This document shows positions 1,562 through 51,535 of a stretch of 64,000 bases of DNA, piece by piece (position 1 is the first letter of the stretch; each line of letters begins with the position of its first letter). Position numbers and translations under genes: made by a program. The notes under the pieces were generated by a model. It was not told the origin of the DNA. It saw nothing but the letters and a program-made list of their open reading frames with translations, and searched no databases. Origin of the DNA: Candidatus Promineofilum glycogenicum. GTDB lineage: Bacteria > Chloroflexota > Anaerolineae > Promineifilales > Promineifilaceae. The stretch is from positions 176,556 to 240,555 of the forward strand of contig JADJHJ010000010.1 of the NCBI GenBank assembly GCA_016707605.1. The letters are read 5' to 3'.

Positions 1562-4500
1562 ATGTTAAGGAGCAATACACGCACTCTCTTTCTCGTCTTG
1601 GCCCTGGGCCTGTTGGGCGGGCTAGTGATGATTCGCCCGACGGCCGTCGAGGCCGGCATCTTCAATGCCAGTAATCAGGTCACTTACAAAGAGTACTGGG
1701 TCCACCATGACGAATTGACCGGCGGCTGCAACGCCGACGGCACGCCGACACACCCCGGCGGCACATGGTACATGGAAGTCGGCACGCGCCAGCGCTGCCC
1801 CAAGACGGTTGAATTCACCGTGCCCGATGATTTCAGCAACGCGGCCAAGGTCGAAATCTACCTTGACCTGTGGCGCGCCTACCATGAGCGCGGCCTCCAG
1901 TTCGAGATGAACGAAAGCGGCGTCGTCCATACCTCGCCCGTTGGCTATGACTGGAGCCGCACGCCCTGGATTCTGGAAGTTGACAAGGCCGAGTTAGAGC
2001 CTGGCCTGAATACCATCACCTTCTGGGCCACCCGGCTGACCCACATCCACGACATCGGCATTCGCATCTATCACAACAACGACAACCCGCTGCTGCCCGG
2101 CCCCGGCGGCGACGTGGAACCGCCGAACGGCCAACTGGTCTCCATTGAGGATGACGGCGGCGTCGTTTCGCCCGATGCCGGCGGCACGTTGATGGTCAAC
2201 GGCAATCAGTTGAAGCTGACGGCCGACATCTCGCCCGACACCCTCTACGTCGAGTTCCACGCCTGGTATGAAGGCTACGACGAGGACAACGACGGCGTCT
2301 TCCGCGACTGGCACAACCTGGGCCGCAACAACTGGTGGCCCGGCGGCCGCGAGGAGTTAGTCACCGGCGGCACCATCAACCACATCGCCACCGTCAAGCC
2401 CAAGAACAGCGCGACGACGGTGTCCACGACGTGGAACATGACCCACATCACCAACCAGTCGTTGATCAAGTTCAAGATCCGTGTGGTGGACGCCGCGGGC
2501 AACGTGCGCGAAGGGGCGGGCGGTATCTCGTCCGACTTCAAGTTGATGCGCAACGTACCCGTCAACGCCTTCATCCTCCACGACTTCACCGACTTCGGCC
2601 TGCACATGGACGGCAATCGGCCTGACTCGGTCAGCTACAACTTCATTATGCCGTCCACCATTGTCGACTACTACACCGAGTCGATTCTGGTCGGGGCCTA
2701 TTGGCGCAACCCCGCCTTCGCCATCAATGGTAGCGGCGGCATCTCGGCCAACTCCCCCGACTGGTCACTAGGGATCAAGTCGTTCCCCAAGGGCTACCTG
2801 GTCGCCGGGCTGAACCGCATCACCTATCAATACACCAATGGCGCCGGCCAATTTGTGGAGTACCCCGGCCCGATGTTCGTCCTGCGCCGGTCGGCGCCAG
2901 GCCCGGCCGACAACACCCCGCCGATCATCGGCGGCCAGTTGCCGGCGCCCAACGCGACCAACGTCGACGTCAAATCGCCCATCACCGCCCGCATCAGCGA
3001 CGACAAGTTCGGCGTTGACTGGCAGACGGTCAAGGTCACGGTCAACGGCGAGGACGTGACCAACAAGACCGACATCCAGGGTGTCATGGGCGACTACCTG
3101 CTGGTCTATGACCCGCCCGGCAACCTCGACTTCTCCACCGAGTACACGGTCAAGATCGAGGGCTGCGACCTGCTGAACAACTGCGCGTCGGCCGTGAACT
3201 ACAAGTTCAACACCGCCGCGCCCGACACCGCGCCGCCGGCCATTACCAACGTGGTGGCCGAGCCGCTGCCCAATGGCGTCAACATCAGTTGGACCACCAG
3301 CGAACCGGCCACCAGCCGCGTCGAATATGGCAAGACGACCAACTACGAGTTGGGCGTGGTCGAAGACACGACGCTGAAGACCAGCCACTACGCCGAAATC
3401 CGCGGCCTGCAACCCAGCACCCGCTACCACTTCCGGCTGAAGAGCACCGACGAGCAGGGCAACACCGCCACGACAAACGACAACACCTTCGACACGACCG
3501 AGTTCGGCGACCTGCTGTCCGATGACTTCAACGCCTGCGTCCTCGATTCGATGTGGACGGAGTTCGACCCGCAGGGCAATACCACCCTGAGCATGTCGGG
3601 CGAGACGCTGTCGCTGAGCTTCCCCGCCGGCGGCGCCCACGACTGGACGACCGGCGGCCCGCCGCGCGTCATGCAGTTGGCCGGCGACGTCGACTTCACC
3701 GTTGAGGTCAAGTTCGAATCGGCGTTGACCGTCCCCGGCCAGATGCAGGGCATCCTGATCGAAGAGGACGACGACACCTACGTCCGCGTCAGCTTCGAGC
3801 GCACGGCCACGGCCACGATCATGTTCTCGCGCTTCGTCAGCAACGGCGTCACCGTCAAGAGCGCCACCACGTCCTTCACCGATGGCACGGTCATCCCCAA
3901 CATGCTGCGCGTCAAGCGCGTCGGCGATAGCTTCCAGCGCTCCTACTACCAGGACGGCCAGTGGAAGGGGCAGGCGGCCTACACGATGGACATGACCCCC
4001 ATCCACGTCGGCGTCTTCGCCGGTGCGGCCGGCGCGGGCGGCACGGCTCCGGCCCACACCGCCGTCGTCGATTACTTCTTCAACACCGACATCCCCATCG
4101 TGCCCGAAGACGGCAATCCGATGAGCGTCGCCGTGGCCGTCGTCGGCAACGGCAGCGTGACCAAGCAGCCCAACAAGACCGTCTATACCTGCGGCGAGGA
4201 AGTCGTGCTGAGCGCGGTGACCGTCCCCGGCTGGTCGTTCGGCGGCTGGAGCGGCGACGTGACCGGCAGCGACCCGATGGCCTCGGTCATCATTGACGGG
4301 CCGAAGAACGCCACCGCCACCTTCACCCAGGATCAGTACGTCCTCAACGTGGCCATCGAAAACGACGGCGTCGGCGGCGAGCAGAACGCCGTGACGAAAA
4401 GCCCCGACCAGGCGACCTACGTCTACGGCGACCAGGTGCAACTGACCGCCGTGCCCCAACCGGGCTGGTCGTTCGTCGGCTGGACGGGCGCGGTCAACAG

Positions 4501-5563
4501 CGCCTCGCCCACCGTCATGCTGACGATGAACGAGAGCAAGTCCGTCACGGCCAAGTTTGAGCAGGATCAGTATGACCTGACGCTCAACGTCATCAACAAC
4601 GCTGTTGTGCCGGGCAGCGTCGGCGGGACGGTCTCGGCCACGCCGCAGAAGACGACCTACGTTTATGGTGACGTGGTCACGCTGCAAGCCAACACCAATC
4701 CCGGCTGGACATTCTCCGGCTGGAGCGGGGCCGTCACCTCGACTAATGCCACCGCGCAATTGACAATCACCGGCGACGCGGTCGTCAACGCCACCTTCAT
4801 CCAGGATCAGTACGAACTCGAAGTCGAGGTCGTCAGCCTGGGCAAGTCGGGCGTCGGCGGCTCCGTCTCGCTGAACCCGGCCAAGGGCAGCTACGTCTAC
4901 AACGACGTGGTCACCCTGGTGGCCGAGGCCAACGCCTGCTGGTCGTTCACGCGCTGGGAAGGCGACCTGAGCGGCACGAACGCGGTGGAAACGCTGACGG
5001 TGACGCGCGACATGGACGTGACCGCCGTCTTCACCCAGAATCGCCACACGCTGACCGTCAACAAGACCGGCCCCGGCCAGGTCGCGGTGACGCCGCAGAT
5101 GGCCGAATACTACTGCGGCGACAGCGTCACGCTGACGGCCACGCCGTCGCCCAACTTCTTCTTCACCGGCTGGTCGGGCGACCTGACCGGCGCGGAGAAC
5201 CCGCTGACCTTCACCATCGAGAAGAACACCGTCGTCACGGCGACCTTCTCCAACAACCCGCCGCCCATCGTCGAGCCGATTCCCGACAAGACGGTGAGCC
5301 TCAACGAACTCGTCACCTTCGCGGTGCGGGCCACTGACCCCGGCGGGACGACGGTCACGCTGACGGCCAACGGCCTGCCGCAGGGCGCGACGTTCGTGGA
5401 CAACGGCGGCGGCACAGGCACGTTCACCTGGCGGCCCAGCATCTCCCAGAGCGGCGAGTACACCATCACCTTCATCGCCTCCGATGGCAACGGCCAGGGC
5501 AGCCAGACCGTTCTCATCACCGTTGAAGGCCAGGCGGTCGTCTTGCCGATGATCATCCGCTAG
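1562..5563 (+). CDS. Giant secreted multidomain surface protein (1333 aa): signal peptide, Fn3-like domain, LamG-like jelly-roll, ~7 tandem divergent InlB-B repeats, cadherin/Ig-like module, C-terminal ...VVLPMIIR
   Basis: N-terminal MLRSNTRTLFLVLALGLLGGLVMIRPTAVEA signal peptide. Repeated '...GW(S/T)F.GW(S/T)G.V.G....T.T(M/V)....VTA.F' units. The 'TSRVEYGKTT...RYHFRLKSTDEQGN' block is Fn3/PAP-N-like. The same 'GILIEEDDD...VDYFFN' LamG block as the other two giants. Confidence 0.8.
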   Translation: MLRSNTRTLFLVLALGLLGGLVMIRPTAVEAGIFNASNQVTYKEYWVHHDELTGGCNADGTPTHPGGTWYMEVGTRQRCPKTVEFTVPDDFSNAAKVEIYLDLWRAYHERGLQFEMNESGVVHTSPVGYDWSRTPWILEVDKAELEPGLNTITFWATRLTHIHDIGIRIYHNNDNPLLPGPGGDVEPPNGQLVSIEDDGGVVSPDAGGTLMVNGNQLKLTADISPDTLYVEFHAWYEGYDEDNDGVFRDWHNLGRNNWWPGGREELVTGGTINHIATVKPKNSATTVSTTWNMTHITNQSLIKFKIRVVDAAGNVREGAGGISSDFKLMRNVPVNAFILHDFTDFGLHMDGNRPDSVSYNFIMPSTIVDYYTESILVGAYWRNPAFAINGSGGISANSPDWSLGIKSFPKGYLVAGLNRITYQYTNGAGQFVEYPGPMFVLRRSAPGPADNTPPIIGGQLPAPNATNVDVKSPITARISDDKFGVDWQTVKVTVNGEDVTNKTDIQGVMGDYLLVYDPPGNLDFSTEYTVKIEGCDLLNNCASAVNYKFNTAAPDTAPPAITNVVAEPLPNGVNISWTTSEPATSRVEYGKTTNYELGVVEDTTLKTSHYAEIRGLQPSTRYHFRLKSTDEQGNTATTNDNTFDTTEFGDLLSDDFNACVLDSMWTEFDPQGNTTLSMSGETLSLSFPAGGAHDWTTGGPPRVMQLAGDVDFTVEVKFESALTVPGQMQGILIEEDDDTYVRVSFERTATATIMFSRFVSNGVTVKSATTSFTDGTVIPNMLRVKRVGDSFQRSYYQDGQWKGQAAYTMDMTPIHVGVFAGAAGAGGTAPAHTAVVDYFFNTDIPIVPEDGNPMSVAVAVVGNGSVTKQPNKTVYTCGEEVVLSAVTVPGWSFGGWSGDVTGSDPMASVIIDGPKNATATFTQDQYVLNVAIENDGVGGEQNAVTKSPDQATYVYGDQVQLTAVPQPGWSFVGWTGAVNSASPTVMLTMNESKSVTAKFEQDQYDLTLNVINNAVVPGSVGGTVSATPQKTTYVYGDVVTLQANTNPGWTFSGWSGAVTSTNATAQLTITGDAVVNATFIQDQYELEVEVVSLGKSGVGGSVSLNPAKGSYVYNDVVTLVAEANACWSFTRWEGDLSGTNAVETLTVTRDMDVTAVFTQNRHTLTVNKTGPGQVAVTPQMAEYYCGDSVTLTATPSPNFFFTGWSGDLTGAENPLTFTIEKNTVVTATFSNNPPPIVEPIPDKTVSLNELVTFAVRATDPGGTTVTLTANGLPQGATFVDNGGGTGTFTWRPSISQSGEYTITFIASDGNGQGSQTVLITVEGQAVVLPMIIR

Positions 5564-5662
5564 TCAAGATTAGGCGACTTCGCGGCCAGGGCCGCTGCAC
5601 CGCAGCGGCCCTGGCCCAATGGCGCGACGCCGGCGCTGATAGTAAACAAGGAGATACAACGC

Positions 5663-6433
5663 ATGAAAGTTGGCATTCTGGCCGGTGGGCATGGCACACG
5701 CCTGGCCGAAGAGACAGAGATCAAGCCCAAGCCGATGGTCGAGATCGGCGGCCGGCCCATCCTGTGGCACATCATGATGCACTACTCGTGCTTCGGCCAC
5801 AACGATTTCGTCATTGCCCTGGGCTACAAGGGCGAAGTCATCAAGCGCTACATGGTCGATTACTGCTCGCTGAACAGCAATCTGACCATCAACCTGAAGG
5901 CCGGGCGCGTTGACCTGCACGACACCGAGGGCATTCAGGACTGGACCATCAACCTGATCGACACCGGCCTGCACACCATGACCGGCGGACGCATCAAGCG
6001 CCTCCAGCCCTACATGGGCGACAAGACGTTCATGCTGACCTGGGGCGACGGCGTCTCCACCGTCGATCTCAGCCGGCTGCTGGCCTTCCATCGCGCCCAC
6101 GGCCGTCTGATCACCATGACCGCCGTGCGCCCGCCCGCCCGCTATGGCCACATGGAGTTCGACGGCGACCGCATCCGCGAGTTCACCGAGAAGCCCCAGA
6201 CGGCCGAAGGCTGGATCAACGGCGCGTTCTTCGTCGCCGAGCCGCAGGTCTTCGACTACATCGACGGCGACGACACCCAATTCGAGAAAGAGCCGCTGGA
6301 GCGCCTGGCCGCCGAGGGCGAGCTGATGGCCTATAAGCACGACGGCTTCTGGCAATGTATGGACACCCGGCGCGACAAGTTCGTGCTGGAGAAACTTTGG
6401 GACAGCGGGGAAGCCCCCTGGAAGATCTGGTAA
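5663..6433 (+). CDS. rfbF: Glucose-1-phosphate cytidylyltransferase
   Basis: MKVGILAGGHGTRL...KPKPMVEIGGRPILWHIM...MTGGRIKR closely matches RfbF/DdhA. AAGGAG RBS upstream of ATG 5663. Confidence 0.9.
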   Translation: MKVGILAGGHGTRLAEETEIKPKPMVEIGGRPILWHIMMHYSCFGHNDFVIALGYKGEVIKRYMVDYCSLNSNLTINLKAGRVDLHDTEGIQDWTINLIDTGLHTMTGGRIKRLQPYMGDKTFMLTWGDGVSTVDLSRLLAFHRAHGRLITMTAVRPPARYGHMEFDGDRIREFTEKPQTAEGWINGAFFVAEPQVFDYIDGDDTQFEKEPLERLAAEGELMAYKHDGFWQCMDTRRDKFVLEKLWDSGEAPWKIW

Positions 6434-21918: not shown

Positions 21919-22566
21919 ATGGCCGCCACACGCACACGCACGAACGACGAGTGGGTCGAAGACCTGCGCCAATCCGGCCCGCGCCGCGAGGCCGCGCTCG
22001 ACGATCTGCGCCAGGTATTGGCCAACGGCCTGCGGCGCGGTCTCGTCGGCCAGGTGGACACCAACGCCCCCGAGTTCGATACCCTGGTCGATGACTTCGT
22101 GCAGGAGACGCTGCTGAAGGTGCTCGACAACCTCGGCTCCTTTGCCGGGCGCAGCCTCTTCACCACCTGGGCTAACAAAATCGCCCTCAACATCGGCCTG
22201 ACCGAGTTGCGGCGCAAGCGCTGGCGCGACAGCTCGCTCGACCAGTTGACCCAGACCGACGACGGCGAATTTACCCCGTCGTTTGTGGCCGACCTGTCGC
22301 CGCGGCCGGAGGCGCTGACCGAGCGGCGCGAACTGCTGGCCTACGTCAGCCGGCTCATCGGCGAGGAGTTGACCGAGAAGCAGCGCACCGCCCTCGTCGC
22401 CGCCGTCATTCAGGGCAAGCCGCTCAGCGAGGTGGCCCACATGATGGACTCTAACCAGAACGCCATCTACAAGCTGCTGTTCGACGCGCGGCAGCGCCTG
22501 CGGCGGCGCATGGCTGAAGATGGGTTGACGCCGGAGGATGTGCTGTCGTCGTTCGTCGATAACTAA
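21919..22566 (+). CDS. ECF-type sigma-70 family RNA polymerase sigma factor
   Basis: Region 2 (FVQETLLKVLDNLGSF...TTWANKIALN) and region 4 HTH (LSEVAHMMDSNQNAIYKLLFDARQRLRRRM). Confidence 0.85.
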   Translation: MAATRTRTNDEWVEDLRQSGPRREAALDDLRQVLANGLRRGLVGQVDTNAPEFDTLVDDFVQETLLKVLDNLGSFAGRSLFTTWANKIALNIGLTELRRKRWRDSSLDQLTQTDDGEFTPSFVADLSPRPEALTERRELLAYVSRLIGEELTEKQRTALVAAVIQGKPLSEVAHMMDSNQNAIYKLLFDARQRLRRRMAEDGLTPEDVLSSFVDN

Positions 22567-22569
22567 CCC

Positions 22570-22712
22570 ATGCGTCGCACCTTCTTCTCTCCCGGTGCAT
22601 CGCACTTTCTGAAGTGCGTTGCACCTTCTTGAGGGGTTCGCAAGGAAAGGGCGACACACTTAAGAAAGTGCCAGGCACTCGGGAAAGTGCCAGGCACTGA
22701 GAGCGGTAAGAA
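22570..22712. repeat. 'tgcgtcgcac' family palindromic element plus direct repeat aaagtgccaggcact x2
   Basis: tgcgtcgcaccttc...gtgcatcgcactttc...gtgcgttgcacc; the same family fills 29780-29960 and 46951-47340. Confidence 0.6.
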
Positions 22713-24411: not shown

Positions 24412-24592
24412 GTGTAATCCGCAGATTAGGCAGATTTGGGCAGATTTAAGAACCTCACGCAAAGATCGCTAAGAACGCAAAGAACGCAAAGAACGCAAAG
24501 AGAAAATCTTCTTGGCGTTCTTTGCGTCCTTAGCGATCTTTGCGTGAGGTCTTCTTCTGAATCTGCCTAATCTGCCCAATCTGCGGATAAAC
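24412..24592. repeat. Nested composite palindromic element (cagatt arms flanking a gcaaag core)
   Basis: gcagattaggcagatttgggcagatt...TCACGCAAAGATCGCTAAGAACGCAAAG...CTTTGCGTGA...aatctgcctaatctgcccaatctgc; ~180-bp inverted repeat filling the glk-pgl spacer. Confidence 0.8.
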
Positions 24593-27263: not shown

Positions 27264-27284
27264 GACAAGAGATATATCATCCGC

Positions 27285-27452
27285 AGATTGGGCAGATTCG
27301 GCAGATTGTAAGAGGAAAGAATCTCACGTAAAGATCGCTAAGGACGCCAGGTACGCCCATAAGATTTCTTCTTTGCGCGCTTGGCGTTCTTAGCGATCTT
27401 TGCGTGAGGCTCTTCTCTCTGAAAATCTGCTAAATCTGCCCAATCTGCGGAT
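27285..27452. repeat. Composite palindromic element (cagatt arms plus gcaaag core)
   Basis: ccgcagattgggcagattcggcagatt...tcacgtaaagatcgctaaggacgcc...cttagcgatctttgcgtga...aatctgctaaatctgcccaatctgcgg. Confidence 0.75.
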
Positions 27453-27454
27453 CA

Positions 27455-28561
27455 TCACTCTCCGGCCCAGGCCAGCCCCAACTCCACCGCGCGGGCCGTA
27501 TAGCGGGCAATGTGGTCGCGGGTCACGCGCCCCATGTCGTCGCCGCGCTGGTGGGCCTTGAACCAGTCGGTGATCTCCGTCAGCGCGTCCACCCAGGTGT
27601 AGACCGGCCGCCAGTCGAGCCGGTGGGCCGCCTTGTCCCAACTGAGGCGCAGCAGCCCCGTCTCCACCTCGGCGTAGCCCGGCCGGGTGTGCTCCCACGC
27701 CCCGCTGCCCCATAGCTCCACCAGCTTCTCGGCCAGCGCCTGGGCCGTCACCCCCTTCTGCTCCAGCGGGCCGAAGTTCCACGCCTCGCCCAAGGCCGGG
27801 CCGCGCCCCAGCAGTTGCGCCCCCAGCCACAGATAGCCGCTGAGCGGCTCCAGCACGTGCTGCCACGGCCGCACGCTGAGCGGGTTGCGCACGCCGATCG
27901 GCCGCCCGGCCATCAGCGCCTTCATGCAGTCGGGCACGAGGCGGTAGTCGGCGAAGTCGCCGCCGCCGATGACGTTGCCCGCCCGCGTCGAGGCGATGGC
28001 CAGGCCGTGGTTGTCATAGTCGCCCGGCGCGAAGTAGGTGCTGCGATAGGCGGCAATGGCCAGCTCGGCCATGGCTTTGCCCGCGCTATAGGGGTCGTGG
28101 CCGCCCAGCGTGTCGCTCTCGCGGTAGCCCCACAGCCACTCCTGATTCTCGTAGACCTTGTCGGTGGTGATGCTGACCAGGGCGCGGACGCTATCCGTTT
28201 GCCGGATCGCCTCCAGCACGTTGACCGTACCGCCGGTGTTGGTGTCGATGGTCAGCTTGGGCTGCTCCACCGAGCGCAGAACGATGGGCTGCGCCGCCAG
28301 GTGGAAGACGATCTCCGGCCGGTGGGTGGCGATGGTTTCGCATAGAGCATCGAAGTCGCGGATGTCGCCGCGCACGTCGCTGATGCGCTCGCTTAGCCCG
28401 GACAGCACGAAGTTGCTCGGCTGCGTGGGCGGCTCCGGCAGGCTATAGCCGATGACCGTGGCCCCCAGTTCGAGCAGCCAGGTCGTCAGCCACGAGCCTT
28501 TGAAGCCGGTGTGGCCGGTGATGAGGACGGGGAGGTTGGAGTAGGTGTTGGTGAAGGGCAT
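27455..28561 (-). CDS. rfbG: CDP-glucose 4,6-dehydratase
   Basis: VLITGHTGFKGSWL...EIVFHLAAQP...DKVYEN.EW.WGYRE...YSAGKA aligns closely with RfbG/DdhB. Confidence 0.9.
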   Translation of the reverse strand: MPFTNTYSNLPVLITGHTGFKGSWLTTWLLELGATVIGYSLPEPPTQPSNFVLSGLSERISDVRGDIRDFDALCETIATHRPEIVFHLAAQPIVLRSVEQPKLTIDTNTGGTVNVLEAIRQTDSVRALVSITTDKVYENQEWLWGYRESDTLGGHDPYSAGKAMAELAIAAYRSTYFAPGDYDNHGLAIASTRAGNVIGGGDFADYRLVPDCMKALMAGRPIGVRNPLSVRPWQHVLEPLSGYLWLGAQLLGRGPALGEAWNFGPLEQKGVTAQALAEKLVELWGSGAWEHTRPGYAEVETGLLRLSWDKAAHRLDWRPVYTWVDALTEITDWFKAHQRGDDMGRVTRDHIARYTARAVELGLAWAGE

Positions 28562-29779: not shown

Positions 29780-29960
29780 GCGATTATAAGCCACTCCGCA
29801 TCGTATCGCACTTTCTTCTCCCGGTGCGTTGCACTTTCCGGAGTGCATCGCACCTTCTTACAGCAAGGTGCGTCGCACTTTCCAGAAGTGCATCGCACCG
29901 CTCCTGAAAGGCGACTCCAGAAAGTGCGACGCACTCCAGAAAGTGCGACGCACTCCAGAA
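29780..29960. repeat. Array of 'tgcgtcgcac/gtgcgatgca' family palindromic units
   Basis: Repeated tcgcactttc / gtgcgacgcact units; the same family occurs at 22570 and as a 120-bp tandem array at 46951-47340. Confidence 0.7.
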
Positions 29961-30015
29961 AGTGCATCGCACTGGGGGCTATGTTATAGTTGCGGCGTGG
30001 GTGGCCGCAAAGGAC

Positions 30016-33919: not shown

Positions 33920-34849
33920 ATGGCAAAGCACGTGCTGGTGATCGGAGCGACGCTGCTGGACACAAAGGGCAAGCCCTCGGCCGGACTGGCCCCGGGTATG
34001 TCGAACCCGGCCGAGATTCGCTCGACGCGCGGCGGGACGGCGCGCAACGTGGCCGAGAACCTGGCCCGGCTGGGGGCCGAGGTGGTGCTCGTCTCGGCCG
34101 TGGGCGACGACACGACCGGGCGGCAACTGATGATCCAGACAGCCGAGGCGGGGGTCAACCTCGATTACGTTGAGATGGTGGCCGATTATCACACCGGCTC
34201 CTACATCGCCCTGCTGGACGAGGATGGGCGGCTGGCGGTGGCCCTCGATGACGTGGGCGTGATGGAGGTCATCGACGCGCCCTATCTGGCGGCGCGGAGC
34301 GATCTGTTCGCCGAGGCAGCGATGGTGATGTTTGACGGCAGCCTGAGCGAGGCGGCGATGGCCACGGTCGTGCGGCTGGCCCGTGAGAACGACGTGCCGC
34401 TGTGCGCCGACCCGTCGTCGGCCCGCCTGGCCCACAAGCTGCGCCCCTATCTGCCCTATCTGCACCTGCTCGTGCCCAACGAAGTGGAGGAGGCAGCGTT
34501 GTGCGACGTCGGCTTCACCGGCCACGACCCGACGGCGAGCCTGACGCTGGCCGGCCGTCTCGTCGCCGCCGGGGTGGCCAACGTCGTCGTCACCCTGGCC
34601 GACTTCGGGCTGGACTACGCCACCAGCGACGAGAGCGGCTACATTCCCCCGTCGCACACCCACATGGTGGACAGCACCGGCACGGGCGACGCGGTGACAG
34701 CGGCCATCCTCTTCGGGCTGCTCAACGATCTGTCGCCCATCGAGGCCATCCGCCTGGGCGCCGCCGCCGCCGCGCTAACCCTCCAATCCCCCGACACCGT
34801 CGTGCCCGACCTGAGCCTCGATATGCTCTATGACCACCTGATTGTCTAG
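33920..34849 (+). CDS. PfkB-family carbohydrate kinase (ribokinase/pseudouridine-kinase-like)
   Basis: N-terminal LVIGATLLD...TRGGTARNVAENLARLG and C-terminal DSTGTGDAVTAAILFGL (anion-hole DTxGAGD motif). Confidence 0.8.
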   Translation: MAKHVLVIGATLLDTKGKPSAGLAPGMSNPAEIRSTRGGTARNVAENLARLGAEVVLVSAVGDDTTGRQLMIQTAEAGVNLDYVEMVADYHTGSYIALLDEDGRLAVALDDVGVMEVIDAPYLAARSDLFAEAAMVMFDGSLSEAAMATVVRLARENDVPLCADPSSARLAHKLRPYLPYLHLLVPNEVEEAALCDVGFTGHDPTASLTLAGRLVAAGVANVVVTLADFGLDYATSDESGYIPPSHTHMVDSTGTGDAVTAAILFGLLNDLSPIEAIRLGAAAAALTLQSPDTVVPDLSLDMLYDHLIV

Positions 34850-34925
34850 GTTCCAGGGGCCAGGTTCCAGGGGCCAGGGGAAGAGCGCTCTTCCCTGGCC
34901 CCTGGAACCTGGCCCCTGGAACCTT
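34850..34925. repeat. 'ccagg' family palindromic element
   Basis: ggttccaggggccaggttccaggggccaggggaagagcgctcttccctggcccctggaacctggcccctggaacc (near-perfect). Confidence 0.8.
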
Positions 34926-34944
34926 GTTTCCTAGGCTCCATCAC

Positions 34945-42473: not shown

Positions 42474-43732
42474 ATGCCGCGCATCCGAGAACTGGGCATC
42501 TACCAGAGCGCGCTGCCAACGGGGGCGCGCAACGCGATCAGCGACGTGGCCGGGGTGGCGGTCGGCCACTTCACGCTGGTGGCCGGGGAAGGGACGCCCG
42601 ACCCCGATTGGCAGCCCGGCCACGGCCCCTACCGCACCGGGGTGACGCTCATCCTGCCCCACGGCGGCAACCCCTACGCCGAGCCGGTCGTCGCTGCCGT
42701 CCACACCATCAACGGCTTCGGCAAGCCCATCGGCTTCGAGCAAGTGCGTGAGCTGGGGCTGCTGGAGACGCCCATCGCCCTGACCGGCACGCTCAACGGG
42801 CCGCGCGTGGCCGACGCGCTCATCACCCTGGCCATCGAGCAGAATCCCCACATCGGCGTCGGCTTCGCCGCCAGCGGCTGGCGCGGCTTCGCCAGCGTCA
42901 ACCCGCTGGTGGGTGAGACCAACGACGGCTATCTGAGCGACTTGCAGGGGCGGCCGATTGGCCTGGCCGAGGTGCGCGCCGCGCTGGTCGCGGCTTCGGC
43001 CGACGTGGTCGAAGGCGCGGTCGGCGCGGGCACGGGCACGAGCTGCTACGGCTGGAAGGGGGGCATCGGCACGGCCTCGCGGATACTTGAAGAAGGTTCC
43101 AGGGGCCAGGTTCCAGGGGCCAGGGAAGAACGCTCTTCCCTGGCCCCTGGCCCCTGGAACCTGGTCCCTCTCTGCCCGGCTATACCGTCGGCGCGCTGGT
43201 GCAGACGAACATGGGCCGGGCGGAGGAGTTGACGATCGGTGGCGTGCCGGTGGGGCGGCGACTGGAAGAAGGGGCCAGGGGCCAGGTTCCAGGTTCCAGG
43301 GAAGAGCGTTCTTCCCCTGGCCCCTGGCCCCTGGAACCTGGCCCCTCTCTTCCCGGCGGCTCCATCATGATCGTCCTGGCCACTGACGCCCCGCTCGACA
43401 GCCGCGGGCTGGGGCGACTGGCGGCGCGGGCGGTGTTCGGCTTGGCGCGCACGGGCACGCCCGGCCACGGCGGCAGCGGCGACTTCGTGATCGCCTTCTC
43501 GACGGCCACGAGAAACCGAGTTTCTTCTGAGAAACTCGGTTTCTACGAAACGCTCCACGAGCAGCCGCTCATGGACCTCTTCGCCCTGGCCGTAGTCGAG
43601 TGCGTCGAGGAAGCGATCTACAACAGCCTGCTCATGGCCCATACGACCATCGGCCGCCACGGCCACGTGCGCCATGCGCTGCCGGCGGATGAGGTGGCGC
43701 GCCTCGTCCAGGGATTAGGGATTAGGGATTAG
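42474..43732 (+). CDS. DmpA/peptidase-S58-family L-aminopeptidase with three in-frame palindromic-element insertions; a frame break sits inside the first element (homopolymer, 43138-43140)
   Basis: ...GAGTGTSCYGWKGGIGTASRIL [element 1, 43089-43172] PGYTVGALVQTNMGRAEELTIGGVPVGRRL [element 2, 43265-43352, in frame: EEGARGQVPGSREERSSPGPWPLEPGPSLP] GGSIMIVLATDAP...GDFVIAFSTA [element 3, 43505-43545, in frame: TRNRVSSEKLGFYETL] HEQPLMDLFALAVVE... Element 1 has 'ttccctgg' where element 2 has 'ttcccctgg'; adding one C restores one continuous ORF. Confidence 0.6.
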
Positions 43733-45074: not shown

Positions 45075-46577
45075 ATGAACGATGCCGCCCCCTACGTCAA
45101 TGCCCGCCGTCTGGTCAAGGTCTTCCCCACCCCCGCGGGCGACTTCACGGCGCTGAAGGGCATTGACTTGCAGGCTAATCGCGGCGAGTTTGTGGCCGTC
45201 ATCGGCAAGTCGGGCAGCGGCAAATCCACCCTCATCAACCTCATCACCGGCATCGACCGGCCGACCGGCGGCGAAATCCACATCGGCGGCGAGCCGCTGC
45301 ACACCTTCGACGAGGAGCGGCTGGCGGCCTGGCGCGGGCGCAACCTGGGCATCGTCTTCCAGTTCTTCCAACTCCTGCCGACGCTGACGCTGGTCGAGAA
45401 CGTCATGCTGCCGATGGAGATCAACCGCCTCTACGCCCCGGCCGAGCGGCGCGAGCGGGCCATGGGCCTGCTGCAACAGGTGGCGATGGACGAGCAGGCG
45501 CGCAAGCTGCCCTCGGCCGTCTCCGGCGGCCAGCAGCAGCGGGTGGCCATCGCCCGTGCCCTGGCCAACGACCCCGGCCTGATCGTCGCCGACGAGCCGA
45601 CAGGCAACCTCGACAGCCGCACGGCGGAGAGCATCTTCGCCCTCTTCCAACGGCTGGCGGCCGCGGGCAAGACGATCCTCATGGTCACCCACGACGAGGC
45701 CCGCGCCGCGCGCACCGACCGGGCGATCATGATCGCCGACGGCGCGGTGGTCAACGAGCACGTGACGCGGGCGCTGGCGGCGCTGAACTACGACCAGTTG
45801 GCCGAGGTGCAGCGCCACGTGGCGGCTACGAGCTATGCGCCGGGCAACGTCGTCGTGCGCCAGGGGGAGCCGGGCGAGCAGTTCTTCGTCATCACCGGCG
45901 GCCGGGCCGAGGTGTGCGTGCGTCAGCCCGACGGCCGCGACGTGCCCGTCGACCGGCTGGGCGCGGGGCAGTACTTCGGCGAGATGGCCCTGGTGGGGCG
46001 GCAACCGCGGCGGGCGACGGTGCGCGCCGCCGGGGACGAGCCGCTGCGCCTGGTGGCCCTCGACGCGGCCACCTTTGACCGGCTGGTAACCGAGTCGCCG
46101 GCGCTGCGCGACGAGTTGCAGAGCCTCATCAGCCTGCGGCAGATGCAGAGCCAGGTGACGGCGCTGGCCGACCTGGCCCAGACCGACGCTGGGCGCGAGG
46201 CGCTGCGCCGCCTGACCGCCGGCGCGCCGGCGCGCGCCTTCGCCCCCGGCGAGACGATCATCCGCCAGGGGGAGCTGGGCGAGGTGTTCTACTTCATCCT
46301 GGAGGGCGCGGTGGAGGTGTTCGTGCGACGCGGCGAGGACGAGACGCTCATCGACCGCCACGGCCCCGGCGGCCACTTCGGCGAGCTGGCCCTGCTGGGC
46401 GACCGGCGGCGGACGGCGACGGTGCGTGCCGCCCCCCTCGCCCTTGGGGAGAGGGATGGGGTGGGGGCGCGGGTGTTGGAACTGGACGCGGCGGCGTTCG
46501 AGTCGTTGCGGCAGTTGTCGGGGCAGTTCGCGGCCGAAGTAGACAAGGCGGCGGCGGAAAGGGCGTCGCGCTTGTAG
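45075..46577 (+). CDS. ABC transporter ATP-binding protein (MacB/LolD-like NBD) fused to two C-terminal cyclic-nucleotide-binding (cNMP) domains
   Basis: Walker [10 protein letters not shown], signature [15 protein letters not shown] and Walker [13 protein letters not shown]. Two CAP-family cNMP domains follow (...[13 protein letters not shown]...[12 protein letters not shown]...RRATVRAA and ...[13 protein letters not shown]...[12 protein letters not shown]...RTATVRAA). Confidence 0.8.
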
Positions 46578-46651: not shown

Positions 46652-49600
46652 GTGGGCACGCTGTGGCGGAAGACGTGGCGCGATTTGTGGCTCTTCAAGG
46701 CGCGGACGGCGCTGGTGGTGCTGGCCATCGCCGTGGGCACGGCCGCGGCCGGGGTGGCCGTGACCAGCCTCATCGTCCTGCGCCGCGACCTGCGCGACGG
46801 CTACCGGGCCACCAATCCGGCCCACGCCATTCTCGACACCTCCCCCTTCGATCCGGCCTTGGCCCAGCGCGTGGCCGAGCGGCCGGGCGTGGCCGCGGCC
46901 GAGGCGCGGCGGGTGGATTCGGCCCGGTTGTTGGTTGCCGCGTGTGAAGACCCTGCCCTCTCCGTGCGTCGCACCTTCTAGGGTGCGTCGCACGTCTCTT
47001 ATGCAGCGGCTGGCGGAGAGGTGCAACGCACTGCGGAAAGTGCGATGCACCGGGCGCTCTCCGTGCGTCGCACCTTCTGGGGTGCGTCGCACGTCTCTTA
47101 TGCAGCGGCTGGCGGAGAGGTGCAACGCACTGCGGAAAGTGCGATGCACCGGGCGCTCTCCGTGCGTCGCACCTTCTGGGGTGCGTCGCACGTCTCTTAT
47201 GCAGCGGCTCTCGGAGAGGTGCAACGCACTGCGGAAAGTGCGATGCACCGGGCGCCTCCGTGCGTCGCACCTTCTGGGTGCGTCGCCGTCAGCGGCTTCG
47301 GAGAGGTGCGACACGGAAAGTGCGATGCACCGGGCAAGTGCGATGCACCAGGAGTGCACGGTGGAGACGCGCCAGGTGGTGCTATGGACTCTGCCCGACG
47401 CCCCGCCAACCATCGGGCGTCTGTTGCCCCAGGATGGCGCGCCCGTGCCCCCGCCGCCGGGCACGCTGCTGCTGGAGCGCTCCGCCCAGGCGGTGCTGCC
47501 CATCGCTGTGGGCGACACGGTGACGCTGCGGCTGAGCGACGGCGACACCTTTCGCCTGACCGTGGCCGGCTTCGTCAACGACATGGCCGTGCCGCCGACG
47601 ACCGTCCAGCCGACCGTCTTCGCCTACATCGCCGACGCCACGGCGGCCCGGCTGGGGCTGGGGGAGCAGGCCAATCAGTTGTTCATTCGCCTTGGCCCCT
47701 TGACGCCTTGGCGTGAGCTCTCTTCCCTGGCCCCTGGCCCCTGGCCCCTAGAACCTACCCGAGCGGAAGTCGAGACAACCGTCACCGCCGTCACCGACTG
47801 GCTGGAAGACGAGGGCGTCGTCGTAGCGCGGGCGGGCATCCCGGAGCCGGGCGTCCACTTGATGCAGGGCAACGTCGACACCGGCCTGCTGATGGTCGGC
47901 ATCCTGGGCGGGCTGACGCTGCTGTTGAGCGCCTTCCTGGTGGCCAACGTCGTCGGCGCGGTCATTGCCCAGCAGACGGCGCAGATCGGCGTGCTGAAGG
48001 CGCTGGGCGGCGGGCGGGGGCTGGTGTTGCGTCTCTACGGGCGGCTGGTGCTCATCTTCGGCGGGCTGGCCCTGCTGCTGGCCGTGCCGTTGGGGCTGGT
48101 GGGAGCGTGGTTCATGTCGTCCACGCTGGCGGCGCAACTCAACTACGACATCCCCTCGTTTGGGCTGACGGCAGGCACGCTACTGGTGCAGGCCGCGGGG
48201 GCACTGCTGGTGCCGCTGCTGGCGGCGCTCGGCCCGGTGTTGGCGGCGGCGCGGCTGCCCGTGCGCGACGCCTTGGCCGGCGAGAAGAGCTCACGCAAAG
48301 GCGCAAAGGAAGAAAAGGCGCAAAGGAAGAAAAGAAAGAACACCACTTCTTCCTTTTCTTACTTCTCTTCTTTGCGCCTTGGCCCCTTTGCGCCTTGGCG
48401 TGAGCTCTCTTCCCCGGCCCCTAGCCCCTGGCCCCTGGCCCCTCGCCTGGGCCTGCGCAACGTCGCCCGCCGCCCGGCGCGGCTGGCCCTGACCGTGGCG
48501 GCGCTGGCGCTGGCCGGGGCGCTGTTCATGGCCACCTTCGGCCTGCGGCTGGGGCTGTACGAGGCGATAGAGATTCTGGTGGGCGAGTTCCCCAGTGACG
48601 TGATCATCGACCTGGAGCAGCCGCAAGCCGTGGCCCGGCTGCGGCGGGCTGCCGATGAGGTAGAAACCGAGTTTCTTCTTAGAAACTCGGTTTCTAGCCG
48701 GGTGGAGCTGTGGGGCGTGGCCGACGCGCGGCGGCTCTACCCCGACGGCCGCGCCGGCAGCAGCTTCACCCTCTACGGCGTGCCGCCCACGACACAGATC
48801 GCGCCGTTTGCCGAACGGGCCGGACGCTGGCTGGGAAAGGATGAAGGCGGAAGGCTGAGGGATGATTCATCCCTCAGCCTTCCGCCTTCATCTTTGTATA
48901 TCAACTACGAGGCCGAGAAGCTACTGGGCCGGCCGGGCGTGGGCGACGAGTTGGCGCTGCGGCTGAACGGGCGCGAGGACGTGGCCGCGCACCTGGTGGG
49001 CATCAGCCTGCGGCCGTTCGACGCCCTGGCCTACATGCCCATCGCCGACTTCGAGCGGGCGACGGGGGAGCGGGGGCGGGCGGGGCGTGTTGTTGTTTAT
49101 CTGGAGGAAGACGCTCACGCCAAGGCGCAAAGAAGCGAAGGCGCAAAGGAAGAACAAGAAGTTCTTTCTTCTCTTCCTTTGCGCCTTGGCCCCTTAGCGC
49201 CTTTGCGTGAGCGTCTTTCGGCAGCGGCCGTGGCCGACGAACTTACCGCCCGCCTCGAAGCCGCCGGCATCGCCGTGGCCCGCACGGAGACGGCCGACGG
49301 CCAGCGCGCCGCCTACCGGGCGCAGTTCGACACGCTGGTGCTGCTGCTGATGAGTCTGGCCGGGCTGACGGCGCTGGTCGGCGGGCTGGGGCTGGGCAAC
49401 ACGATGGCCCTCAACGTGCTGGAGCGGTCGCGGGAGATCGGCGTGCTGCGGGCGCTGGGGGCGCGGCGGCCGTTGCTGCGGCGGCTGGTGCTGGCCGAGG
49501 GGCTGCTCATCGCCCTGGGCAGCGTGGCCCTGGCCGTGCCCCTGGCTGTGCCCCTGACGCTGGCCCTCGACCGGGTCATGGGCGTGTCGCTGCTGGGCAG

Positions 49601-49739
49601 CCCGCTGACCTTCGCCTTCTCTGCCCCGGCGGCGGTGGGCTGGCTGGCGCTGGTGCTGCTCATCGCCGTGGTGGCTTGCTGGCTGCCGGCGGAGCGGGCG
49701 GGGCGGATGACGGTTAGGGAGGCGTTGGCGTATGAGTAG
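46652..49739 (+). CDS. ABC transporter permease with MacB-type periplasmic domain and two FtsX-like TM modules, carrying a 120-bp x3 tandem array and at least five further in-frame palindromic-element insertions; in-frame TAG and frame change inside the array (46979)
   Basis: ORF 46652..46981 (TM1 plus the start of the periplasmic domain) ends at TAG in array copy 1 (copies 2 and 3 have TGG). ORF 46935..49739 reads through the array in another frame and continues ...TVETRQVVLWTLPDAP... to FtsX1, a second periplasmic domain and FtsX2. In-frame elements lie at 47695-47760 (ccagg), 48285-48450 (gcaaag plus ccagg), 48655-48700 (gaaaccgag), 48835-48895 (perfect 53-bp palindrome) and 49100-49215 (gcaaag). 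Confidence 0.55.
46951..47340. repeat. Tandem array: 3 full copies plus a degenerate copy of a 120-bp unit ('tgcgtcgcac' family), in frame within the permease gene
   Basis: The unit ctccgtgcgtcgcaccttctggggtgcgtcgcacgtctcttatgcagcggctggcggagaggtgcaacgcactgcggaaagtgcgatgcaccgggcgct repeats at 46963, 47083 and 47203. Copy 1 has TAG where the others have TGG. Confidence 0.8.
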
Positions 49740-49810
49740 GAGTTAGGGATTAGGGATTAGGGGAAGAGCGCTCTTCCCCTAATCCCTAATCCTAGCCCCT
49801 AATCCCTGGC
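49740..49810. repeat. 'gggatta' family palindromic element
   Basis: gagttagggattagggattaggggaagagcgctcttcccctaatccctaatcctagcccctaatccctggcccc. Confidence 0.75.
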
Positions 49811-49997
49811 CCCTTCCTAACGAGCGTCCGGAAGCGAGTCAACAAATAGAGCGATGACCTGCCGCAACTGGGCGTTGTCGTCGCCTGTAGTCAACGCGGC
49901 GCGCGCCCCATCGATCAGACGGCGCGCCTCCTCCACATCCCCTTCCACCAGCGCCACGCGCCCCAGAAAGGTCAGCGCCAGACTCTCCATGTCGTCT

Positions 49998-50042
49998 GAG
50001 CACTAGAAACCGAGTTTCTTCCGAGAAACTCGGTTTCTAGGT
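49998..50042. repeat. 'gaaaccgagtttc' family palindrome
   Basis: ctagaaaccgagtttcttccgagaaactcggtttctag; other copies at 43505, 48660 and 59350. Confidence 0.75.
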
Positions 50043-50132
50043 CCTTGCGCCTTTTGCCACTTAGCGCCTTTGCGTGACCTCTCCTATAATAGAGCCACCA
50101 CACGCCGTAACCCGGCCGACAAGGAGCAGCCC

Positions 50133-51535
50133 ATGCCCAAACCCACCACAAGCCCCTGACCGACACCGTTTACACCCGCGCCCCCTACTGGGCCGACGTG
50201 CCCGACGAGCAATGGATGGATTGGCGCTGGCAGATGTCCAACCGCCTCAACTCGGCCGACGAGCTGGCCCGCGTCATCAACCTGACCGACTCCGAACGCC
50301 GCGCCCTCTCCGCCAAGGGCCTCTTCCGCGTCGACATCACCCCCTACTTCGCCAGCCTCATCGACCCCAACGACCCCCTCTGCCCCGTCCGCAAGCAGGT
50401 CATCCCCACCGACCGCGAGATGGTTCCCTTCCAGTCGATGATGGAAGACAGCCTGGCCGAGGACAAGCACTCGCCCGTGCCCGGCCTCGTCCACCGCTAC
50501 CCCGACCGGGTGCTGATGCTCATCACCACCCAGTGCGCCAGCTACTGCCGCTACTGCACCCGCAGCCGCATCGTCGGCGACCCGACCCAGACCTTCAGCC
50601 GGGCCGAGTTCGACGCCCAGATCGACTACATCGAGCGCACGCCGCAGATCCGCGACGTGCTGCTGAGTGGCGGCGACCCGATGGTGCTGGCCCCCAGGCT
50701 GCTGGACATGATCCTCGGCCGCCTGCGGGCCATCCCCCACGTCGAGATCATCCGCATCGGCTCGCGCGTGCCCGTCTTCCTGCCCATGCGCGTCACGCCC
50801 GAGTTCTGCGACATGCTCGACAAGTACCACCCGTTCTGGCTCAACATCCACGTCAACCACCCCAAGGAGATCACCCCCGAACTGGCCGCGGCCGCCGACC
50901 GGCTGACCCGCGCCGGCGTGCCCCTGGGCAACCAGAGCGTGCTGCTGGCCGGGGTCAACGACTCCGTCCACATTCAGCGCAAACTGGTGCATGAGCTGGT
51001 CAAGATTCGCGTCCGCCCCTACTACCTCTACCAGTGCGACCTGGTCGAAGGCTCCGGCCACCTGCGGACGACGGTCAGCAAGGGCATCGAGATCATCGAA
51101 GGGCTGCGCGGCCACACGTCGGGCTACGCCGTGCCCCAGTACGTCGTCGACGCCCCCGGCGGCGGCGGCAAGATCCCGGTCATGCCCAACTACGTCATCA
51201 GCCAGGCCCCCGGCAAGGTCGTGCTGCGCAACTTCGAGGGCTTCATCACCACCTACACCGAGCCGCTGGACTACGATCCGCACGAGATTCAGCACCAGGA
51301 AGCGCTCATCGCCCGCCGCCCGGAGCCGGGGCAGGAGGGCGTGCTGGCCCTGCTGGAAGGGGAGCGCATGGCCATCGAGCCGGAGGGCTTCGGCGACACC
51401 CACGCCCGCGGCGGCGGCGAACACCGCCTGCGCAGCGGCGACATCGCCCAGAAGTGGCAGCCCCTCGGCGTCGGCTCCATCGAAGTCCATAAGCCGCGGG
51501 AGCGGCTGGCGTCGGGGAACAACGAGACGGAGTAA
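50133..51535 (+). CDS. kamA: L-lysine 2,3-aminomutase (radical SAM, KamA family); apparent 1-nt frameshift between ATG 50133 and ~50160
   Basis: ...YWADVPDEQWMDWRWQ..., CASYCRYCTRSR (CxxxCxxC), GGDPM and the C-terminal region align with B. subtilis KamA over its full length. AAGGAG RBS 7 nt before ATG 50133 (MPKPTTSP* in frame 0). The KamA frame is open from 50111 but has no good start; the indel is probably in the ccc/cccc runs. Confidence 0.85.

Follow-up and report, generated by a model that had tools for sequence, protein, structure and literature searches.

Rickettsia palindromic elements (RPEs) are repeats of about 100-150 bp that lie in frame in many genes of an obligate intracellular alphaproteobacterium and encode family-specific conserved peptides (Ogata et al. 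2000 Science, 2002 Genome Res, as summarised in PMC10969869 and PMC3733652). REPs and REPINs are palindromic repeats tagged by GTAG/CGTC and mobilised by RAYT transposases, located mostly downstream of genes, with a minority in open reading frames (ORFs) (PMC3733652, PMC3116915). The MITEs (small transposable elements with inverted repeats) ERIC, BOX and Correia/NEMIS are non-autonomous repeats able to create translational fusions (PMC10969869). The locus analysed here is a tandem-FtsX permease gene (46652-49739, + strand) in a 64,000-nucleotide stretch of the free-living filamentous Chloroflexi Candidatus Promineofilum glycogenicum (contig JADJHJ010000010.1, positions 176,556 to 240,555), hereafter the window, whose numbering is used throughout. 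Six inserted segments, belonging to five repeat families, are found in this one gene. They are very probably in-frame copies or fragments of dispersed hairpin repeats, predicted to be translated and tolerated in loops of a functional protein.

The gene runs from a GTG start at 46652 to a TAG stop at 49737-49739, and its product has two FtsX-like C-terminal permease domains (Pfam PF02687, two stretches, E 1.1e-24); both its limits and its identity agree with the preliminary description of this DNA. Protein searches return 114 homologues, mostly of 790-810 aa, the named ones coming from Candidatus Promineofilum/Promineifilum. A profile built from 58 orthologues matches the PDB sequences of MacB (E 5e-27), YtrF, LolE and LolF. 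The AlphaFold model of P0125, an intact 968-aa allele (pLDDT 83.7, pTM 0.80), is matched by Foldseek to YbbAP (9ge6, 9ge7; E 1e-21), as well as to MacB (5gko, 5lil) and LolCDE (E 1e-16 to 1e-13), each half of the protein being composed of a transmembrane (TM) helix, a large extracytoplasmic domain and three further TM helices. The window gene encodes a type VII ATP-binding cassette (ABC), MacB/YbbP-like tandem-FtsX permease of a Candidatus Promineifilum genome. It shares with the MacB, YbbP and LolCDE transporters the two FtsX domains, the two extracytoplasmic domains, the adjacent ATPase gene and the fold, but differs from them by about 170-240 extra repeat-derived residues and by an ATPase partner that bears two cyclic nucleotide (cNMP)-binding domains.

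The inserts have a GC content of 0.49-0.60, compared to 0.70-0.80 in the remaining permease gene, and are all described on its + strand. Insert 1 (46937-47361), in a beta-hairpin loop of extracytoplasmic domain 1, is a tandemly amplified palindromic element with four GTGCNNNGCAC boxes. Insert 2 (47688-47750), in the loop preceding the last helix of the same domain, is composed of a gcaaagg-family right arm and a CCCTGGC heptamer run; it is not palindromic (fold z-score +0.6) and is considered a half-element because, in alignment, it repeats the right part of insert 3 (48377-48447) in direct orientation. Insert 3 (48284-48447) occupies the cytoplasmic linker between TM4 and TM5, and consists of a gcaaagg-family palindrome containing four inverted repeats (48284-48412; -74 kcal/mol, z -9.8), followed by a CCCTGGC half-arm (48413-48447). 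Insert 4 (48660-48697; z -6.5) is a TAGAAACCGAGTTTCT-N4-AGAAACTCGGTTTCTA hairpin (the gaaaccgag motif), encoding ETEFLLRNSVS at a helix-to-strand junction of extracytoplasmic domain 2. Insert 5 (48837-48895; z -12.8), in a loop of that domain, is a 59-nt palindrome with arms of AAGGNTG heptamers, each 29 nt long with one G-T pair, around a perfect 53-bp core (48840-48892). Insert 6 (49101-49224; -85 kcal/mol, z -11.4), in the loop preceding the last helix of domain 2, is a gcaaagg-family palindrome with 53-nt arms, and it stands in the second half of the protein at a position equivalent to that of insert 2 in the first. Overall, the strong hairpins of inserts 1 and 3-6 fold far better than shuffled sequence (z -5.5 to -12.8).

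The perfect 53-bp palindrome and the gaaaccgag and gcaaag elements had been named in the preliminary description, which counted palindromic insertions of at least four families; they are confirmed here, the gaaaccgag hairpin at 48660-48697 and two gcaaagg-type palindromes at 48284-48412 and 49101-49224. That view stands for the set, now six inserts of five families, but not for the 'ccagg' stretches it included (47725-47750 and 48413-48447), which are half-elements and not palindromic (z +0.6). The CCCTGGC runs in the permease gene are single arms, full palindromes of the same family being found elsewhere in the window (e.g., 34846-34926).

The positions of the inserts in the protein can be read from the AlphaFold model, in P0125 numbering and with secondary structure elements assigned by DSSP. 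Insert 1 (residues ~98-177) lies between strands 80-96 and 177-187, insert 2 (290-305; pLDDT 52) between strand 280-287 and helix 310-326, and insert 3 (~482-538; pLDDT 38-56) between TM4 (447-473) and TM5 (536-584). In the second extracytoplasmic domain, insert 4 (611-622) is found at the end of helix 600-617, ahead of strand 621-635, insert 5 (673-687) between strands 661-664 and 687-690, and insert 6 (760-792) between strand 749-758 and helix 797-810. All six thus fall between DSSP elements of the model; five of them are low-pLDDT segments, and insert 4, modelled with confidence, prolongs a helix. Two inserts belong to extracytoplasmic domain 1, one to the TM4-TM5 linker and three to extracytoplasmic domain 2, which gives, for the topology on which the preliminary description wished to see them mapped, five extracytoplasmic inserts and one in a cytoplasmic linker. 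As far as the model goes, the inserts are located in loops, where the fold tolerates extra residues.

Orthologues without insertions do exist. In most of the 58 aligned orthologues (~790-810 aa), the loops corresponding to the inserts are short, measuring 4-5 aa at site 1 (144 aa in the window), 8 aa at site 2 (24 aa), ~25 aa at site 3, the TM4-TM5 linker (58 aa), 9 aa at site 4 (17 aa), 12-16 aa at site 5 (25 aa), and 12 aa at site 6 (44 aa). Syntenic DNA comparison shows filled and empty alleles directly: site 1 is empty in L005 and L006 and holds a single in-frame copy in L002 (protein P0007), and site 4 is empty in L002 and L005 and holds an identical copy in L006. Other orthologues bear different element families at the same loops, site 6 among them, and these loops are therefore shared insertion hot spots. 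In addition, many of the 'uninserted' TM4-TM5 linkers themselves look palindrome-derived (e.g., TKYEIRD...SYFVSRISYL). As a separate observation, about 100 aa of the second extracytoplasmic domain of P0007 are gone between insert sites 5 and 6 (L002 7800-7900); a GGTTCCAGG-family palindrome sits at the deletion junction, and the event looks element-associated.

The gene is intact with the inserts in place in other members of the species. The cluster formed by the window protein at 90% identity holds two members of 968 aa, P0121 and P0125, encoded by L004 and L003, respectively, which are independent conspecific wastewater metagenome contigs. Both are intact ORFs with the same start residue as in the window, all six inserts, two array units, W at the position of the window TAG, and no frameshift. 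Outside the array, ~50 substitutions and zero indels separate the window from L003/L004, with ratios of nonsynonymous to synonymous substitution rates (dN/dS) relative to the window allele of 0.18 (L003) and 0.15 (L004). Judged from these ratios, the gene is under purifying selection with its inserts in place. Two more contigs are informative: L081, found by a metagenome scan, has TGG in unit 1 and stays open from its start codon across at least 3.2 units, until the contig ends inside the array, and L001, whose sequence starts within the array, continues in frame into the downstream permease. The suggestion that the elements are tolerated in loops of a functional protein is, thus, supported by the short-loop orthologues, the intact 968-aa alleles, the dN/dS values of 0.15-0.18 and the modelled loops.

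Insert 1 contains the tandem array. The preliminary description had reported three copies of a 120-bp unit (40 aa); three tandem copies are indeed present, with a period of 99 bp (33 aa) and an additional degenerate copy of 82 nt, as defined by Tandem Repeats Finder (TRF; 46958-47290, 3.4 copies, 97% matches). Unit alignment places full units at 46958-47056, 47057-47155 and 47156-47254, and the degenerate fourth unit, source of a +1 frame change, at 47255-47336. Each 99-nt unit has four GTGCNNNGCAC boxes, every box being itself a small palindrome, and a hairpin of -57 to -61 kcal/mol (z -5.5 to -7) is predicted for each of the units. The in-frame TAG announced for the first copy is found at 46979-46981, with TGG in units 2 and 3 and in unit 1 of L003, L004 and L081, and the announced frame change within the array is also real, one ORF of frame A (46652-46981, 109 aa, ending at the TAG) yielding within the array to one of frame B (46935-49739, 934 aa), with native reading back from ~47337. 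The two pieces are annotated by NCBI as MBK7218190.1 (109 aa, IPH95_14345) and MBK7218191.1 (804 aa), on a Promineofilum MAG contig of 279,779 bp. Compared to L003/L004, the window shows G-to-A at 46979 and 181 extra nt (99 + 82), and since 181 is 3n+1, the frame of the permease changes. The 82-nt unit corresponds to unit 3 of L081, an intact 'TT' variant, from which it lacks 17 nt, partly through homopolymer loss. L002 has one unit, L003 and L004 have two each, L081 has at least 3.2, and the window has three plus the degenerate one; array copy number therefore varies between populations. Neither the TAG nor the +1 shift occurs in any of four independent short-read contigs (L001, L003, L004, L081); both are specific to this assembly or allele and do not characterise the gene in the population at large. 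Recoding of TAG is ruled out, as the permease's own stop is TAG and the conspecific alleles have TGG at 46979.

The inserted sequences belong to repeats dispersed in the genome. The window counts 44 hairpin loci, mostly just past stop codons, compared to 3-6 in composition-matched shuffles, and each family motif is strongly over-represented. The automated intragenic/intergenic classification missed true intragenic copies (43094, 43275, 48837), and its intragenic counts are a lower bound only. Family A, the GTGCNNNGCAC-box element of permease site 1, has intergenic copies at 22560-22700 and 29815-29985. Family B, defined by TCACGCAAAG / GCGCAAAGG (gcaaagg), is found at sites 3 and 6, with its right half at site 2, and in intergenic DNA at 24449, 40636, 51527, 56269 and 58721. 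Family C comprises the CCCTGGC / GGTTCCAGG heptamer elements, present as half-arms at sites 2 and 3. Family D is the 36-nt hairpin of site 4 (48662), with other window copies at 43511, 50005 and 59348; three of these four copies are intragenic, in an S58 peptidase gene, in the permease and in ORF 58731-61178. Family E, the AAGGNTG-heptamer palindrome of site 5, is a singleton in the window. Two array units (66 aa), compared to 1.84 billion protein representatives, gave 339 matches, the best of which are TPR_12-like repeat proteins with a chance resemblance to the peptide (LERALRIFETFYGTNHVEVA vs RALSVRRTFWGASHVSYA), and the comparison yields no sign of wide translation of the element in this frame. 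Rfam 15 gives zero matches at the gathering score over the whole window, and below it only generic miRNA-hairpin models.

Family D extends well beyond this genome. Scanning a genome collection (L007-L080) yields at least 78 exact copies in at least 74 loci, complete chromosomes included. Among the matches listed, the hosts are Promineifilum, Ardenticatenia, Anaerolineae, Caldilineales, Litorilinea and Chloroflexia, with, outside Chloroflexota, several Candidatus (Ca.) Poribacteria genomes and one Rhodospirillales metagenome-assembled genome (MAG). At least 10 of the 78 copies listed are intragenic and in frame, using three different reading frames. The loops form two reverse-complement pairs, CAGA/TCTG and CGGA/TCCG. 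No GTAG/CGTC tag accompanies the hairpin in the 78 copies listed, position -2 being uniform, and enrichment in their flanks is limited to T at -1 and A at +1, which simply lengthen the palindrome.

Other observations concern family A. Arrays of this family also occur in intergenic DNA, with at least four 91-bp units in L082 (1287-1655, reverse strand) and two units in L085 (7840-8050). In L084 (7215-7330) and L085, GTGCNNNGCAC-box elements lie directly upstream of TATAAT-like boxes between divergent genes; from their sequence, the boxes may be operator-type dimer binding sites.

The genome is saturated with short hairpin repeats, whose arms are tandem 7-19-nt sub-repeats, mostly located just downstream of stop codons, with some copies or fragments inside genes. 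A simple model may account for this distribution. The intragenic copies that persist would be those that pass three filters: a net length divisible by three, a host frame left free of stops, and a loop site where the added residues spare the fold. At sites 2, 4, 5 and 6, the gene frame is the sole stop-free + frame, as such survivorship would predict, and at site 3, it is one of two. The in-frame array would have arisen from a 99-nt element amplified in tandem by slippage or unequal recombination.

Several points weigh against the reading of the inserts as tolerated repeat copies. All alleles are known here from DNA sequence alone, the window allele as assembled cannot give a full-length protein (TAG, +1 shift, two NCBI ORFs), and short-read assemblies can collapse 99-bp repeats, so that L003/L004 may have more than the two copies counted. 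The distribution of inserts 1 and 4 is homoplastic on the neighbour-joining (NJ) tree, and a single insertion followed by vertical descent is therefore not a full account; a single-gain history does not fit the tree, on which repeated gain, precise loss and recombination are not separable. Moreover, the elements were not seen to have a target-site duplication, a terminal tag or a transposase: none of the duplications sought at the filled-vs-empty sites 1 and 4 is convincing, site 4 looking like a four-codon replacement, and no gene called within ~6 kb in L003-L006 has a transposase Pfam match. A rival reading would see the segments as native low-complexity linkers of the permease family, never inserted, a notion that the TM4-TM5 linker, variable in every orthologue and often palindrome-like even where 'uninserted', might encourage. 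It is scarcely credible, considering the short-loop orthologues at five sites, the recurrence of the same sequences as dispersed intergenic repeats and the filled and empty alleles at sites 1 and 4; for sites 1, 2, 4, 5 and 6, the orthologue alignments rule out a native origin. The stems themselves raise a different question. Between the window and L005 (gene 3001-5769), the site-5 palindrome shows seven differences, six of which form three fully compensatory pairs, the seventh repairing the G-T; none disrupts the stem, though both arms are coding and the flanks are 85-87% identical. Similarly, L003 and L006 share a site-4 hairpin with 100% identity, despite flanks that are only ~80% identical. 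These patterns may reflect selection on structure, replacement by family members or hairpin-templated repair. Together with the 36-nt hairpin exactly conserved across Chloroflexota classes and Ca. Poribacteria, and with the GTGCNNNGCAC-box elements adjoining TATAAT boxes in L084 and L085, they speak for hairpins kept in coding DNA for a function, such as translational pausing at domain boundaries, operon regulation or protein binding by mRNA or DNA structures, or the provision of variable surface loops under diversifying selection. We consider this very unlikely: most orthologues do without inserts, the inserted peptides are modelled with low confidence and their family differs between orthologues, symmetric changes can also result from family-member replacement or hairpin-templated repair, and the hairpins are known from sequence alone. 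A broader proposal, that these elements form a distinct hairpin class common to Chloroflexota and Ca. Poribacteria, carried in coding DNA and actively kept palindromic, not passively tolerated junk, would rest on the site-5 compensatory pairs, the zero divergence at site 4 and the exact cross-phylum conservation of the 36-nt hairpin, and appears to us speculative and rather improbable. The tolerance of repeat copies in loops remains the preferred reading.

The two lesions of the window allele call for their own explanation, and the preliminary description had offered fresh inactivation of the gene as one possibility, which may hold for this allele as assembled, but not for L001, L003, L004 and L081, where neither the TAG nor the shift is found. 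For the allele itself, the balance between acceptance and rejection seems even for the idea that the TAG and the +1 shift are consensus errors of long-read (Nanopore-type) sequencing, in a tandem repeat beyond the reach of short-read polishing, the real allele being intact with about four 99-bp units. The lesions are confined to the array, with none elsewhere in 3 kb; the degenerate unit deviates from the consensus mostly by deletions, homopolymer shortenings among them (GGGG to GGG, TTT to TT), and matches an intact L081 unit, in addition to the four short-read contigs being free of either lesion. The neighbouring DNA is instructive here. Along the ~10 kb that the window and L003 have in common, three indels affect the interior of called genes: the 181 nt of the permease array, 76 nt inside a repeat in the S58 peptidase gene, and a C5-to-C4 deletion at ~50152, at the start of a radical-SAM/KamA-like gene (ORF 50198-51535). 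The C4 run truncates or shifts a conserved N-terminus (MPKPTTSPLTDT...), while C5 is found in L003 and in the more distant L002, and it is probably a homopolymer error of the assembly. A fourth indel, of 27 nt at ~41476, is found right where the ADI/DDAH gene call begins, and probably precedes the gene's true start. A published activated-sludge MAG set, assembled from Nanopore reads with CANU, Racon and medaka, plus Illumina Racon, holds one Ca. Promineofilum MAG (PMC8012365), to which the window may be linked. Nevertheless, 17 missing bases and several substitutions in a single 99-nt unit are far more than a polished consensus normally leaves, G-to-A is atypical as a residual error, and the 76 nt by which the S58 gene differs have the look of a genuine structural variant. 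It is also possible, though we lean a little against it, that the permease was really and very recently inactivated in this strain, the array being a mutational hot spot that gave rise to a nonsense codon and an out-of-frame partial unit. The lesions are present in the sequence as given, the S58 peptidase gene likewise loses its frame, compared to conspecific alleles, precisely at a repeat element, array copy number varies between populations, and the low dN/dS and lack of further lesions fit a very recent event. All that favours a consensus error weighs against it, however, and it is unusual for a fresh pseudogene to have two independent lesions within 360 bp and be clean otherwise.

Compared to the described systems, the inserts resemble RPEs, as these appear in the sources cited above, in being dispersed palindromic repeats found between genes and in frame in unrelated genes, where they would be translated, at fold-compatible positions. 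Except for the site-5 palindrome, they belong to dispersed families with copies outside genes, and in-frame insertions absent from orthologues, with the ORF intact, are observed in the 968-aa alleles, the frame of the window being broken in insert 1. Set against the same accounts of RPEs, the elements differ by their free-living filamentous host, their length (36-130 nt) and their arms of tandem 7-19-nt sub-repeats, as well as by the gathering in one gene of at least five families, at six sites, with an in-frame tandem array, and by the occurrence of nested insertions. They may, thus, be called RPE-like as a kind, on the analogy of features and not of sequence, and membership of RPE-1 to RPE-10 is not claimed. 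With REPs and REPINs, they share the form of short hairpins located mainly just downstream of genes, with few copies in ORFs, adding some residues. Unlike REPs, family D has no GTAG/CGTC tag and no conserved flank beyond one base, no RAYT is found near the locus, and family D is exactly conserved across phyla, whereas REPs are usually species-specific. The likeness to MITEs lies in non-autonomous repeats with potential in-frame fusions, but no terminal inverted repeats bound a non-palindromic core, and target-site duplications are lacking at the filled-vs-empty sites. As in an intragenic variable number tandem repeat (VNTR), the 99-bp units form an in-frame array, present in different copy numbers in different populations; unlike in VNTRs, the unit is a whole dispersed palindromic element, not a native coding repeat. 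Cyanobacteria offer another parallel in their heptamer repeats (STRR) and small dispersed repeats/Nezha MITEs, reportedly the subject of work by Mazel et al. in 1990 and by Elhai et al. and Zhou et al. in 2008. These repeats have tandem-heptanucleotide arms, form hairpins, and show nested insertions and occasional intragenic copies. The Promineifilum elements differ from these by phylum and sequence, and by a far denser set of in-frame copies per gene. In the literature collection searched, no description of in-frame palindromic elements was found for Promineifilum or Chloroflexi.

Elements of these kinds are also found around the permease gene. Three bases past its stop, at 49743-49814, a GGGATTA-heptamer palindrome with four inverted repeats occupies the usual intergenic location, and further on, inverted repeats and motif alignment delimit an intergenic gaaaccgag hairpin (50003-50040), followed by a gcaaagg-family right arm (to 50085; element 50003-50085). 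An intergenic composite palindrome with 96-nt arms (27269-27462) is a nested insertion, in which an outer GCAGATT-heptamer element encloses a gcaaag-family element. Palindromic elements at 58721-58783 and 56269-56351 are located at the 5' ends of the long ORFs 58731-61178 and 56265-58637, whose automatic start calls probably include translated repeat that is upstream DNA. ORF 58731-61178 carries one in-frame element. The S58 peptidase (DmpA-like) gene (42474-43732; ORFs 42474-43232 and 43199-43732) carries three (43094-43169, 43275-43346 and 43511-43544). In the window, this gene is out of frame after the first element; in the conspecific contigs, it encodes an intact 444-aa protein (L003 1746-3080, L004 1416-2750), owing to the nesting, within the first element's loop, of a second one of 76 nt (GACGCGGAGA family).

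Upstream of the permease, the partner ABC ATPase gene (45075-46577, + strand; Pfam ABC_tran, E 3.7e-34) adjoins it in synteny in five related loci (L002-L006). The ATPase ends in two C-terminal cyclic-nucleotide-binding domains (cNMP_binding x2, E 1.9e-41), an unusual architecture that is kept in L002-L006 and suggests a cNMP-regulated MacB-type transporter. Several short-read contigs of the permease (P0119, P0120, P0126) end exactly at palindromes, and the hairpins seem to break assemblies. The peptides CLLYTSRCV and MCIRDS, at the ends of the proteins called from these contigs, are what we take to be translated sequencing adapter.

In-frame 'protein-coding palindromes' have hitherto been treated as a Rickettsia peculiarity, with scattered REP cases elsewhere. 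The same phenomenon is found here, much denser locally, in free-living and environmentally important Chloroflexi, with six sites and five families in one gene, two further genes affected within these 64 kb, elements nested in one another, a whole element multiplied into a polymorphic in-frame array, and hot spots common to orthologues. From a practical viewpoint, such repeats break short-read assemblies, where they form contig ends, and in long-read MAGs they can lead to genes being wrongly called pseudogenes. If the elements were indeed an actively maintained hairpin class, this would imply dedicated hairpin-recognising machinery for their mobilisation or homogenisation, or a function of the hairpin (pausing, protein binding), and the GTGCNNNGCAC-box arrays could serve as reversible on/off or length switches in genes. 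The permease and its relatives constitute a natural data set on which protein loops tolerate insertions, and bear on the manner in which short hairpins spread without recognisable transposase signatures, as well as on the birth of new protein sequence.

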